A DNA stretch of 64,000 bases, taken from positions 20,336,001-20,400,000 of the forward strand of contig CM120641.1 of assembly GCA_051362555.1 (NCBI GenBank), given 5' to 3'. The position numbers and the translations under genes were made by a program. Positions 12,901 through 18,900 of this stretch are shown in pieces. Source of the stretch: Lingula anatina. Taxonomy: Eukaryota; Animalia; Brachiopoda. The notes beneath the pieces are model-generated. The model saw only the letters and a list, made by a program, of their open reading frames with translations, searched no databases and was not told the DNA's origin. The first letter of the stretch is position 1, and every line of letters begins with the position of its first letter.

Positions 12901-15900
12901 TTTACTTACTTTTCTGAACACAAACGGCTCTTCATTATAGACTGGATTCAGTCCATTATTAGGTACAACCCTTGTCCTGTACTCTTTCCTTATTGTGTCT
13001 GTGGGAAGCCCATACATGTCCACTTCTACATACGTCCCTATCTTCCTGTCTGATAAGAACTGTCCAGATATCACCTGAGAAAAATGGGACATTTTAATGG
13101 AATCTTTATACCATCACCTTGGCAAGTTCCACAGCAAACATTAATTCTCCCAGTTAACTCATCAAAGCTAATGCATTGATTTTAGGAGATTGAGAGAGCC
13201 ACGTTCTAAAAGAATTTATTTCAAGATTAACTTACTGTAACTGAGCAGTGTGCAGCTATCACTCCATCAACAGGACTTTCTGAAAATGGATCAAATGTTC
13301 TGTCTGGACGTCGCATGAAATCTGGCTTTAAGAGATAACTGAAAGTAAATATAAATTTTTAAACATTTTTCCCCTTTCAGTTGATTTTCAAAATGATCCA
13401 TTAAATTCTAAAGTCTATTTCTTTTACAAGATGATCTGTCAGTAGGGTCTACTTATATTACAGTGTGTGTGTGTGTGTGTGTGTGTGTGTGTGTGTGTGT
13501 GTGTGTGTGTATGTGTGTAACAACAAAATAATTACAAATACAATGATATATTTAAATAAAATCCATGTTCAAAGAAAGGTCCTTTATAACGAATTCAAAT
13601 GCTTTGCTTTAACAATTCTTTTTTGTTTGAATGATTTATAAAACAAATCATTTTTAAATTGGCAAAAAAAAGTTTGTCAAGCTTCTACACACATGGTACA
13701 TACTCCCTTAATTTAAACAAAACTGATAAACTACATTTCTCAAAACAGTCATATCACAAAAAAAAAAAAGTTTGAGATCTGCAAGCAGTTATAATTTATA
13801 CTATAATTCAATTTTACATTTTCTATGAATATATGGATATTTTATTAAAATAACATTAAATACTTTGGGCAAACCTTACCCACAGTTGCCATTGTACTCA
13901 AACTTGCCCTGGTTCAGCTGAATGGCCAGGTCTGGGGTCTGGAAGTTCAGAGCAACCATCTGACAGCCTGCATTCCAGAAGATCTGAATCGAAAAAAAGA
14001 GATAAAAACCTGTTTTCCAGAAGATCTGAAACAAAAGAATGTACTAAACCTGAATTCCAGAAATTCTGAATGAAAGAACATATAAAACCAAAACATGACC
14101 AAATGGTAGGATTTACATTAGTGCCTTCACTAAACTTTAAAAACCTCTTAGGTTTGGTTCTCACCTAAAAATCATGATAAAAACAAGGAATACAATAAGT
14201 TTTAAAGTATTCAACCTGATGCTCATGACTCAAAATTGTGACAGCATTTTCCCCAAAGACGTCATCCATTATCCCAGCTACCATAATTTTCAACAGATTC
14301 TTCTTCATAACCAAAACCCCAGTTTTTTGGAAAAAAAAAAAAAAGATCAGGCTTAAAACCAACAGTTGAAATTGAATTTTTTGTGAAATAGCAGTTTTCC
14401 TAACTTCCAGAAGTCACATTGCCAAGTCAGTGATGTGAACAGGGTCCCTGAAAAAATGAGATGAAAAGTCATTCCCAGCAGCCGATCCAGAGATATTTTC
14501 TGACAGTCTTCCAAATTATCTTTGTTGATCCATCCTCCATTTTTGACCGCCAGACAGAAAAAAATTAGATGCCCATCAAGGTAGTCTTTAAAATTCTGTA
14601 TGCCTCTCGTTTCTCACCAGTAGGAAAGCAAATGCTAAGTCTCCTTTGACAGAATTTACATTTTTCTACCAATAAAAGAAAACCTTACCTGCGGCATGTA
14701 GTTACTGGAGTCCACTCTGCCTCCCCTAGGATATATCCTGCTCATCTGTCTCTTGTTATAACTGAGAGGTGGTGGTTAAGGATTTGGCTCAATTACAACA
14801 CAAAATTTAACAGGAATTTACACCAACAGCCACTATATCTAAATGTATCTAGACTAGGCCATGCTACAATGCAGTGCATACAATTTTACCATAAGATAGT
14901 TTAAGAAAATTCTTCCGGCTTTTAAAATTAAATTCTGTCACTTGCCAGTGTGAAATCCTTCTACAAGTCAAGATTTAAAATACTGAATTGGTTTGCAGGC
15001 AAGGTGAAGTGGTATAGCATGCAAAAAAATACCCATTATAGACTCTGCTTTACTATGTGCAGACTGTAGTGCATGTAAAAATGACCAAAAGATTAAAATC
15101 CAGCATTACATTATCTCTCCTTTATTTGAATTTTTTTATTTCCCTTAAATAATAGGGTGAGTGATAAAATTTGAATCTTCTGAAACTTACTAGAGCTTTT
15201 CCCATAAAAAAAAGCAGATGCAATAGTGAATGGCAGTTCAATTCATTTTTTAAAATTATTGCAATTGATCTTAATTTTGAGCATTATTATCTACCTTACT
15301 TAATCTTTCATATAAAATTCCACAAATTGAATAAATTGAGCAAACGCAGCCATCTTATTTGTGTTTGTGAACATGCAGAAACCTTTATTTTTATTAACCT
15401 TTTTATCATTTCACTCAAATTTATTTTCATCTGCAGGTAAATTGAAAAACTGAGATAAATTTTTAATGTTTCTTATGTCTAAATGGTTTTATGTAGTAAG
15501 TAGCACTAAGATGCATGTGTAAACTTACTAAAATAATAATAACAATAATAATAATAATGTTCAGCAGTGCAGTCCTGGAGTTAGTCATGTTGGAAAATTA
15601 AACCAAAAATTCAAAATAAAACACCACTCTGATAATTTGTTCTGCAATTTTTCCCATCAAGTATTCAGTCTGAGGAACAAAAACTCTGTAAGTTGTACTC
15701 AATACATTAACTGTTTCATATACCATTATGCTTGAAACAGTTTTTGCCATCAACCATTTCATGCAGGCCTCAGGATATTGAAAACAAAAACACGAGAAAA
15801 GCTGTAAGAAGAGCTGGAAATATGTTAAAACAAACAAGCTTGCATTTTTTTTTTTTTGTTGTTGTTCCATAGTTCCATATGATAAAAATACTATGTTCTA

Positions 15901-18900
15901 CCTTGTTCTATAATAAATGCACACAAAGGATACTCACACAACTCATAACACGAATTCCTCAAAAGACCCAGTGCTGTGTTTTCATTGAAGGAGGACATGT
16001 GGAAGTGAATATTTTTCTCTGGAACCCAGATCATGCACATGCAAGAGAAAAACAATGCATAAACAACTGAGAACAACTCGGAATGCAATCTGCAGGAGTC
16101 ACACCAAGCAAAAAAAATAATAAATAAAATAATAATAATAAATAAATAAATAAATAAATAAATAAATAAATAAATAAATAAATAAATAAATAAATAAATC
16201 AAATAAAATAATAATAATACATTAATAAAAATAATGAAAATATTGCAATGGTTTGCTGGGATACATATATTCTAGTGTTACCCCCTAAATTTCTGTAGAC
16301 TTTTTGGTGGCATACTATGGTTCAATTAGATGAATCTAATGCTGGTGAAAAAGGCTTTGAAACTCGGGTTATCTATAACTGGATAACAGCAATTTATGGC
16401 AAAGAATATGTCTGAAAGAATCTCTTTTTTCTTTTCCTTTTTTAAAGTAAAACATATCAGCTGTTCTTTCTAAGCTCAAAAAAATTTCCCAGGTTTGTAT
16501 CAAAAATAATTTCTTGCCAATATACACTGCTTTCATTTGGAATGAGCATGAATAGTTAAAAATATGAGTTTCCCACAAAATCACTTTTTATTTACTTATA
16601 TTATACAATTTAATTTTTAAAAAAGTTAAATGTAAAAAATGGGCCATATTGCAATAAATAATGTTACAATGACAGTGGAATCAGACGACAAATCCCACTG
16701 GGATGGTGTCTGCTCTCTTTCACTGGCTACAGGCATCACCCTTTGGGGCCTTTTTCACAAGATCAATTTAGCCCAAAAAGTAGACCAAAATTTTAGTCTA
16801 TTTTGACCAAAGATAAAGTGATAGTCAGATAATCAATGATAGTCCAATCAAATAAAATACTGCACCTGTTCTATAACAAGAAAGATAGACACGGTTATTA
16901 ATGTTCAGGTCAATACCAGTACTGATTTAGTTTGAACTCAAGCAAACCACACTTTTGGACAAAGAGTTCAGACCAATTTTCAGGCCTAAGATCTATTTGT
17001 GAAATATGCCCCTGCTTTATAAGATACTGTCAACATAGGAAGAATTTTGGGTTAGTATGACAGTGTGCAAATGGTTGAGATGGAACAACAAAATTTTTAT
17101 AAACAGCTAAGATGATATGTACTGTGGAGATACGTATCTGTGCTCATTCTAGAAAGAAATCACGTGAGACTTTTACTGAACTTCTAGGCAAAATAACTCA
17201 AAATATTGGAGTGGAAAAGAGAAGCAATGTGCAACACAGTCTCTTGGAAGTACTGAAAAAAACTGAAACTGGAAAACTCTCATGCATGAATTTTGTTAGG
17301 CCTAAGATATTGGCGATACGCTATTTATTGGCAACTAATCATTCATGGGTTCTGCTCAAAATATCGATTTGCATTGTATACTTTACTATTTAAATTTTGG
17401 CGTCTAGCATGAGCCCAGGGCATTATGGGAACACAAGCACACTGTTCTAAACAGAAAAACACTCAGAAAAATCAAATGAATCTGGCAATTTGGTGCAGAC
17501 ATCATACCTGCATATGTAGAAGGAAACAATCAATCAATCAATTAATTACTAATCAAAAACTCAGTGCTGATAGATTAAGAGAAACAATCATTCAAATTTG
17601 TATATCAATAATCAAAAATAACTGATTCAACCTATCAAATGAAAGAGTAAATCAATAATAAATCAAACATGAGAAGACAGAAAGGATACTTGACAAATTC
17701 AATAGCCTCAGTCTTGAGGTACCCCAGACCAGTATTTTCATTGAAGGAGGACATATGGAATTGAACATTCCTCCCTAGGGTAGACAGCAGCAAGGAGAGA
17801 TATATATCAAGCAAAGATTGAAGCAATAATAAGCTTATGAAAAAGGGATGCCCTTGAGGGATTCACATCAGAGTTTACCAAATCATTACATAATTTCATT
17901 TTACTTGGCATGCATCATTTGATTTATAAAAAAATATATATCATTGGTTTAGGCACATTATTGTGGTGGTAAGCAGATTTTGAGGTAAAAGCAGATGTTA
18001 TATATTGGTACATAATGATTTTCATAATATTTGTGATATAGATCTGAAGGGAAAAATCACTGAAAATCATTGCTTGCAATGGATCCTTATCTTATTCAAA
18101 TCAAGTTCAATGTAGAAAGATGTCCAATTGGGAGAAACTTCTACATGAAAACTCTTCAACTCACCTTCCGCTACGTCGAAGCCTTGAAATTTCACTGGTT
18201 GTGCGTAATTCACAAAGGAAGAAAGCAGAGGGTGGATGTTGGTGGTGGCACCAGTGTAAGTATATGACATCATCAATGCTGCCTCTTCATCCGCCGTCAA
18301 ACTACCCTGCAATAAAGAGAATCCAAAAATATTACAAATTCAAATTAGAACAGCACATTGGGGGTCCATTTTTGCTAGTCACGGGGACCAACCCCATGTG
18401 ACTGGTCTGTAAGAGAGAGTGAGAAGTAGACAGATGATTTGACACAAATCATTTGGACAGTTAAAATCAAACAGATTATCATTATGTTAAATCACAACAT
18501 ATTTAAGGAAAAGCATTTCAGGCTAATCAGAAAGACTACAGAAGGCAAAGGAACATTTTTCAGGTGCAGAAGGTACAAATAATTGGGGAGATAAAGACAT
18601 TGGACAGTTTTTTTAATATAATATTAAGCAGAATTAATTTCATTCTACATACACACTGTATTAACTTATTCTAAATTTCACAGTCAACTTATCTGGTTAG
18701 ATCTAGTAGTTTGCTTTCTTTCATTTCAGTAAAAACATATCAGAAAAACCAAATACATAGTGTCTGTCCATAAAAGGTAATTTGGGCAACTTCCAAAAAA
18801 TTTTCTTTCAGATTTACTGAAAATTTCATAGCTATAAACAGAAAAGCAATATACTATACTAAATATCTGTAAAGGAAGACATGAAAAATACTGGTGGATG

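Follow-up and report, generated by a model that had tools for sequence, protein, structure and literature searches.

How does a gene that carries one short exon twice in tandem ensure that exactly one of the two copies is used? This question is raised by a stretch of 64,000 nucleotides (nt) from the brachiopod Lingula anatina (assembly GCA_051362555.1, contig CM120641.1, positions 20,336,001 to 20,400,000 of the forward strand), in the following called the window, which contains the gene of PLC-beta4 (PLCB4) on its minus strand. Two paralogous exons of this gene, A and B, lie between a common upstream exon U and a common downstream exon D. The types of their splice sites suggest that major (U2) and minor (U12) spliceosome together prevent their joint use, and they represent a real, conserved and very likely mutually exclusive exon pair of the JNK type. 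The elements concerned are as follows, in positions of the window; P0001 is the RefSeq model XP_013393655, and L030, L038 and L057 are loci from other DNA with several copies of the exon.

18165..18306, minus strand: exon U, upstream common exon (end of the X-Y linker, start of the Y box); ends AAG, followed by gtgagt (U2 donor GTGAGT); 100% match to P0001
17690..17774, minus strand: exon A, 85 nt, resembling the single-copy PLCB4 of other animals; U2-type acceptor with 16/20 pyrimidines
17681..17689, minus strand: U12 donor of exon A, GTATCCTTT, as read in the sequence
16019..17689, minus strand: hybrid interval from A to B, 1671 nt; starts with a U12 donor and ends with a U2-type acceptor
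16032..16043, minus strand: tandem TGCATG TGCATG just 5' of exon B, presumably of Rbfox type, from a motif count
15934..16018, minus strand: exon B, 85 nt, the diverged version; U2-type acceptor with 11/20 pyrimidines; present in P0001, joined to D by 8 reads
15918..15933, minus strand: U12 donor of exon B with UG-rich extension, GTATCCTTTGTGTGCA; a similar extension follows the last copy in L030, L038 and L057
14775..14782, minus strand: U12 branch site TCCTTAAC, common to A and B; only copy in the window, both strands considered
14689..14761, minus strand: exon D, downstream common exon, followed by a U2 donor; joints of B to D and of D to the next exon occur in reads
6911..50819, minus strand: whole PLCB4 gene, about 33 coding exons including A and B, from tblastn of P0001 and full-length annelid and nemertean PLCB4; exon ends approximate

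Exons A and B have the same length and phase (1-2) and agree at 55 of 85 nt and at 15 of 27 residues. Exon B, like A, is directly followed by GTATCCTTT, and the acceptor of D has 15/20 pyrimidines. The frames U-A-D and U-B-D are open. U-A-B-D meets a stop 35 nt inside B and U-D one 18 nt inside D, and in each case further junctions follow. For comparison within the gene 33 exon ends of PLCB4 were placed approximately, by tblastn matches and the nearest GT or AG. Only A and B show no mismatch to the U12 donor GTATCCTT, the other 31 having three to six, and among the PLCB4 acceptors only D shows none to the branch consensus TCCTTRAC (A has two, 32 nt from the AG, B three and one other acceptor one). 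These mismatch counts fit an interlock composed of a U2 donor at U, U2-type acceptors and U12 donors on A and B and one downstream U12 branch site. A sequence-only reading of this DNA had already proposed the exon coordinates, two paralogs of 85 nt in phase 1-2, the donor and branch types, acceptors of A and B that lack a TCCTTRAC match and a frameshift after A+B joining or double skipping, and all of this holds on the minus strand. The sequence ATATCCTG is found at 15778, inside the minor intron between B and D.

Throughout the window the same motifs are not enriched: GTATCCTT has four matches (shuffle mean 1.85, with 7 of 100 shuffles reaching four) and the branch-plus-AG pattern occurs three times versus 1.93 expected. 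From base composition ATCCTT after a given GT has p ~3e-4 and TCCTTAAC in a given 30 nt p ~5e-4. This means that the placement of the U12 motifs is above chance, not their number in the window.

Both versions of the segment are also found in protein records of other animals. Thirty protein clusters with at most 15 listed members each were examined, and the assignment of versions rests on the members listed. Among these, both versions occur in 16 of the 20 spiralian clusters, i.e. in Owenia, Lineus, Biomphalaria, Aplysia, Pomacea, Haliotis, Patella, a limpet-like cluster, Crassostrea, Mytilus, scallops, venerid clams, Schistosoma, Opisthorchis, Schistocephalus and Mesocestoides. None of the ten non-spiralian clusters (three sea stars, two fishes, spider, midges, krill, Daphnia and horsehair worm) has two versions among the members listed. 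Twenty A/B protein pairs, chosen because both forms are shown (that of Patella possibly combines two species, and part of the species names were read from shortened labels), are all identical over 40 residues upstream and 200 residues downstream, and the difference is confined to the segment. In the 18 pairs of equal length 11 to 19 of 29 positions differ. In the other two pairs, from scallops (P0236, P0239, P0241 and P0243), the B segment is five residues longer (34 residues), with an exon length that stays 3n+1. In the ostrich the PLCB4 isoform P0116 has four extra residues just before the segment.

Faulty gene models are informative as well. Of 294 proteins that cover the stretch from U to D, two contain both copies. 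These two, a snail and a tapeworm mis-model, have A before B and intron letters in between. Among mis-predicted proteins that run into the intron 13 of 21 continue with K/E-Y-P, as GTATCC would encode; six of these 13 came from a query that itself holds KYPF. Free of this bias the count becomes 7 of 15, with records from tapeworm, fluke, snail and annelid among them.

Expression in Lingula was followed in four raw-read runs (X1, X4, X6 and X7) of nine carrying the same species label, mapped to 13000-16100. The joint from 15934 to 14761, with GT..AG on the gene strand, is present in six reads of X6 and two of X7, i.e. eight reads in two of four runs at exactly the sites predicted beforehand, and no read covers the bin 14768-14871 at the 3' end of the B-D intron. 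Exon B is conserved in protein records and not a decaying duplicate. In X6 six B-D joints face eight joints of D to the next exon, and 16 reads lie over a site in D versus seven over a site in B; the greater depth at D leaves room for A, and the joints may also fit B as main form. Exons B and D each show one variant among the reads, silent in either case. X6 and X7 also contribute a few reads within the B-D minor intron (15496-15807); depth is absent beside either exon, and these reads may represent unspliced RNA or a cryptic exon. A pile-up of thousands of reads from all four runs covers about 65 nt of the intron 3' of D (14484-14549). Its reads have loose ends at either side and carry many variants; it is a repeat transcribed from many other places.

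Further copies were obtained from a metagenome scan, in which the best 80 of 188 matches correspond to 76 loci. Of these 14 have no exon copy, 31 no intron after the exon, six one copy with a non-U12 donor, 22 one copy with a U12 donor and three several copies. All seven copies of the last group (three in L030, two each in L038 and L057) end in GTATCCTT after U2-looking acceptors. L030 and L038, which are close relatives and count as one case, have their sole branch-like match at D and thus the same interlock layout; in L057 the donors fit. Together with the window four multi-copy loci are known, and 9/9 of their copies keep a perfect U12 donor. L030 is placed among spiralians, with Chaetopterus nearest by path and without firm support, and its three copies (L030:6287-9556), each with a U12 donor, are followed by one TCCTTGAC branch site. 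L057 scores high with clam proteins; its first copy (2395-2485) has 91 nt, i.e. two residues more, and its length stays 3n+1. In L031 and 21 similar annelid-like single-copy loci a perfect U12 donor precedes only TTCTTTAGC-like sequence before D, and L073, L074 and L076 have GTAAGT at the position of the U12 donor. Altogether 37 of 59 single-copy loci, which are not independent of each other, have no intron or a non-U12 donor.

At the protein level the segment aligns to residues 610-638 of human PLC-beta3. The pattern S-S-F-x-E is invariant in 20 A and 18 B segments and is followed by consistent differences (G/A, Y/L, L/I, A/C and N/D). We take the second serine of the MSSF motif to be the counterpart of PLC-delta1 Ser522, for which a confirming search found nothing. 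In PLC-delta1 Ser522 is among the residues that bind the 4- and 5-phosphates (available part of PMC12195575). No report on Ser619/Arg646 was found in the literature searched. Judged from the alignments, both enzyme versions retain the SSF.E core and diverge in the residues behind it; such differences would tune catalysis rather than abolish it. A search of solved structures with the open frame around exon A returned no PLC.

The assignment to a PLC-beta gene, already part of the earlier reading, can be narrowed to L. anatina PLC-beta4 by the match to XP_013393655. A full-length annelid PLC-beta maps collinearly across 50818-6914 (tblastn) and the sequence and domain order are those of PLC-beta4. 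Annelid and nemertean full-length proteins span 50818 to ~6911 in order, so the entire gene lies inside the window. Among the PLCB4 proteins compared it groups with those of molluscs. P0001 (857 residues) is the sole Lingula protein record found (a cluster of one) and uses exon B; the model begins at 27383, apparently in an intron, and is without the N-terminal half of the protein, which is present at 50819-27383. Around the first exons (46001-54000) the GC content is 0.41-0.46 versus ~0.33 elsewhere. A second, N-terminal duplicated exon (weak tblastn match at 35568-35542) was rejected, having no fitting splice sites or open frame.

How, then, is joint use of A and B prevented? We consider it likely that incompatibility of the two spliceosomes is the main device, as in JNK 6a/6b. 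Exon U would be joined to either A or B by the major spliceosome and the chosen exon then to D by the minor one. Joining of A to B would fail for want of a U12 branch site in front of B with which the U12 donor of A could be paired, and by analogy with JNK2 the hybrid interval between them is probably unspliceable as one intron. Rare A+B or double-skip products would shift the frame and be removed by nonsense-mediated decay. The sequence-only reading had gone further and regarded both A+B joining and double skipping as barred by hybrid introns as well as by the frame. Its frameshift part stands, and its bar on double skipping is less firm, since U2 donors can use U12 acceptors in MAPK12 and CENATAC (PMC8329584, as far as available). 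Together with the pyrimidine-rich acceptor of D this means that double skipping is not firmly barred and that frameshift and decay are the likely safeguard.

The origin of the pair can be outlined as well. Human and mouse PLCB1-4 are listed as minor-intron genes, and the donor of the human PLCB4 minor intron reads CAA followed by GTATCCTTA, the same letters as at the end of exon A (both PMC6717393, available part); this intron very likely lies at the same position as the donor of exon A. The minor intron would therefore be ancestral, and the pair would stem from copying of an exon with its flanks. It is likely that the duplicated exon was the one upstream of this old minor intron, and this probably happened by a single tandem duplication of the exon flanked by an old U2 intron on one side and by the ancestral PLC-beta minor intron on the other, predating the divergence of brachiopods, molluscs, annelids, nemerteans and flatworms. 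A tree built from 55 segments places all 18 rows labelled B, and with them the second copy of L057, on one side of a branch with support 85/85, and the A/B labels require one change in 98% of 200 bootstrap trees. This segment tree allows a single origin of B without proving it. Lingula itself is listed as rich in minor introns (available part of PMC10639083).

Several observations weigh against this interpretation. The mapped stretch excludes U and A, so the reads speak to B-D only; there are just eight of them, X1 and X4 are almost without coverage of the gene and show no B-D joint, and 168 read rows with loose ends lie outside the tally. Four of the 20 spiralian clusters show one version (two with a single member, Tubulanus with B only in three records and Paragonimus with B only), and protein records are blind to A+B joining since it shifts the frame. 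There are 22 near-identical annelid-like loci with one detected copy, the full U-D stretch being present in only some of them. The last copy of L030 falls outside the B side of the tree, which comprises 27 columns, labels assigned by eye, unsettled bootstraps and long B branches. The ability of U2 donors to use U12 acceptors belongs here too, and, with a length of 85 nt, decay alone could yield apparent exclusion.

The last point leads to the alternative that exclusion is achieved mainly by nonsense-mediated decay of A+B and double-skip products and that the U12 donors were just inherited from the duplication. It is favoured by the exon length, which is not a multiple of three and remains 3n+1 in the longer variants of scallops and L057, and by stops that precede further junctions; moreover, 60% of the human clusters of mutually exclusive exons have lengths that are not multiples of three (PMC5740500, as far as available). 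Decay as main cause is nevertheless unlikely in our view, given that all nine copies in four multi-copy loci keep the perfect U12 donor and that the 72-nt exons of TMEM87, which have the same layout, are used exclusively although their length causes no frameshift (available parts of PMC6717393 and PMC8329584). Competing RNA pairings, or a distant branch point close to the donor of A, would make the intron types incidental. Mechanisms of this kind are reportedly common for duplicated exons, and short conserved elements do flank B. Among 72 inverted repeats in 14700-18200 the 25 longest are, however, mostly AT-rich and imperfect, no docker-like block common to the loci was seen by eye in the 130-nt flanks, and the A-B interval, measured from donor to acceptor, far exceeds the 50-nt steric limit, which together render such an explanation very unlikely. 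Finally, Lingula might use only B, with A as a silent relic or one copy as an assembly duplicate. The single protein record with B and the joint counts of X6 could be read in this way, whereas A is intact and the more conserved version (24 of 27 residues identical to the A segment of Pomacea; mean pairwise identity 0.74 among A segments versus 0.52 among B segments), the nucleotide identity of A and B is too low for alleles and the depth of X6 at D leaves room for another exon. We regard this last possibility as extremely improbable.

The preferred explanation, incompatibility of the two spliceosomes, would forbid only the use of both exons; which of them enters the mRNA is probably decided by competition between the U2 acceptors, and the (T)GCATG elements preceding B are candidate regulators of this choice. 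Elements of this type are bound by Rbfox proteins. Among 31 acceptors of the gene only that of B has TGCATG within 130 nt, twice (a post hoc observation), and in the window, L030, L038 and L057 (T)GCATG is found 5' of 4/4 last-position copies versus 0/5 earlier copies. The UG-rich extension follows the donor in all four last copies. In L057 (T)GCATG also occurs downstream, and an effect in either direction would be conceivable. A wider, tentative proposal is that duplication of an exon before a minor intron yields an instant exclusive switch which then locks the intron, that the array can grow past two and that in spiralians generally a conserved (T)GCATG in front of the last copy determines by tissue which enzyme version is made. 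Conversion of a U12 donor to a U2 donor would allow A+B, so lineages with the pair would keep the minor intron. The 9/9 copies with a U12 donor, the K-Y-P mis-models of tapeworm and fluke and the 37/59 single-copy loci losing or converting the intron are the observations behind the lock, and the proposal as a whole is somewhat doubtful.

The mechanism of the U2/U12 interlock was already known; added here are the range of the PLC-beta4 pair over flatworms, nemerteans and annelids, the three-copy locus and (T)GCATG before B. No report of a PLC-beta pair was found in the literature searched, with most subscription journals outside the search and U12DB, IAOD and MIDB not covered. Printed examples found are all vertebrate (MAPK8/9, TMEM87a/b and five of 629 human clusters, as far as the sources were available). 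With these cases in print the layout is less rare than the sequence-only reading had assumed with its very few known examples. A switch in the catalytic domain of a Gq-coupled PLC-beta4, seemingly kept from brachiopods to tapeworms, would be an old and separately evolved case. Set against the mostly neutral view of minor-intron evolution (PMC10639083, available part), it provides a specific case in which to ask whether a minor intron can be kept in place by alternative splicing. Two PLC-beta4 enzymes are further predicted for Aplysia, for oysters and for related models, and no study of their differences was found in the literature searched.

Within the gene family Drosophila norpA has exon 4 subtypes, and the arthropod gene resembles the present case in having alternative segments of similar length. 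It differs in their place: two isoforms of Daphnia norpA (among P0354, P0352, P0346, P0353 and P0325) differ over residues 127-151 and in the exon that corresponds to U, and Daphnia has one version of the A/B segment, which fits the earlier statement that the alternative exons of norpA are N-terminal. A woodlouse model contains two U-like segments in a row, and it looks like a separate duplicated exon, matching U, exists in crustaceans. The minor introns of human and mouse PLCB are similar in the U12 donor after ...CAA in PLCB4, as in exon A (PMC6717393, available part), and differ in that the vertebrate PLCB4 records examined have one version of the segment. The human survey counts five U2/U12 clusters, i.e. 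0.79% of 629; PLCB was not found in its available text or ten supplementary files (PMC5740500), the figure naming these five clusters not being covered. Exons 11/11a of TMEM87a/b share the interlocked U2/U12 layout with two exclusive exons of equal length, and differ in having 72 nt without a frameshift safeguard and in that a lack of joined reads is shown for them (PMC6717393 and PMC8329584, available parts). Closest are exons 6a/6b (7a/7b) of MAPK8/9, to which the earlier reading had likened the layout in agreement with the available text of PMC1874599: two paralogous exons that have U2 acceptors and U12 donors follow a U2 intron and precede a single U12 branch site, and duplication of an exon with its flanks has been proposed as their origin. 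The JNK pair differs in belonging to a kinase instead of a lipase and to vertebrates instead of invertebrates; the PLCB4 pair is probably older, and its related locus L030 has three copies. A further difference is that for JNK2 a choice of exon by tissue through the pyrimidine tract was tested in minigenes (PMC1874599, same part).

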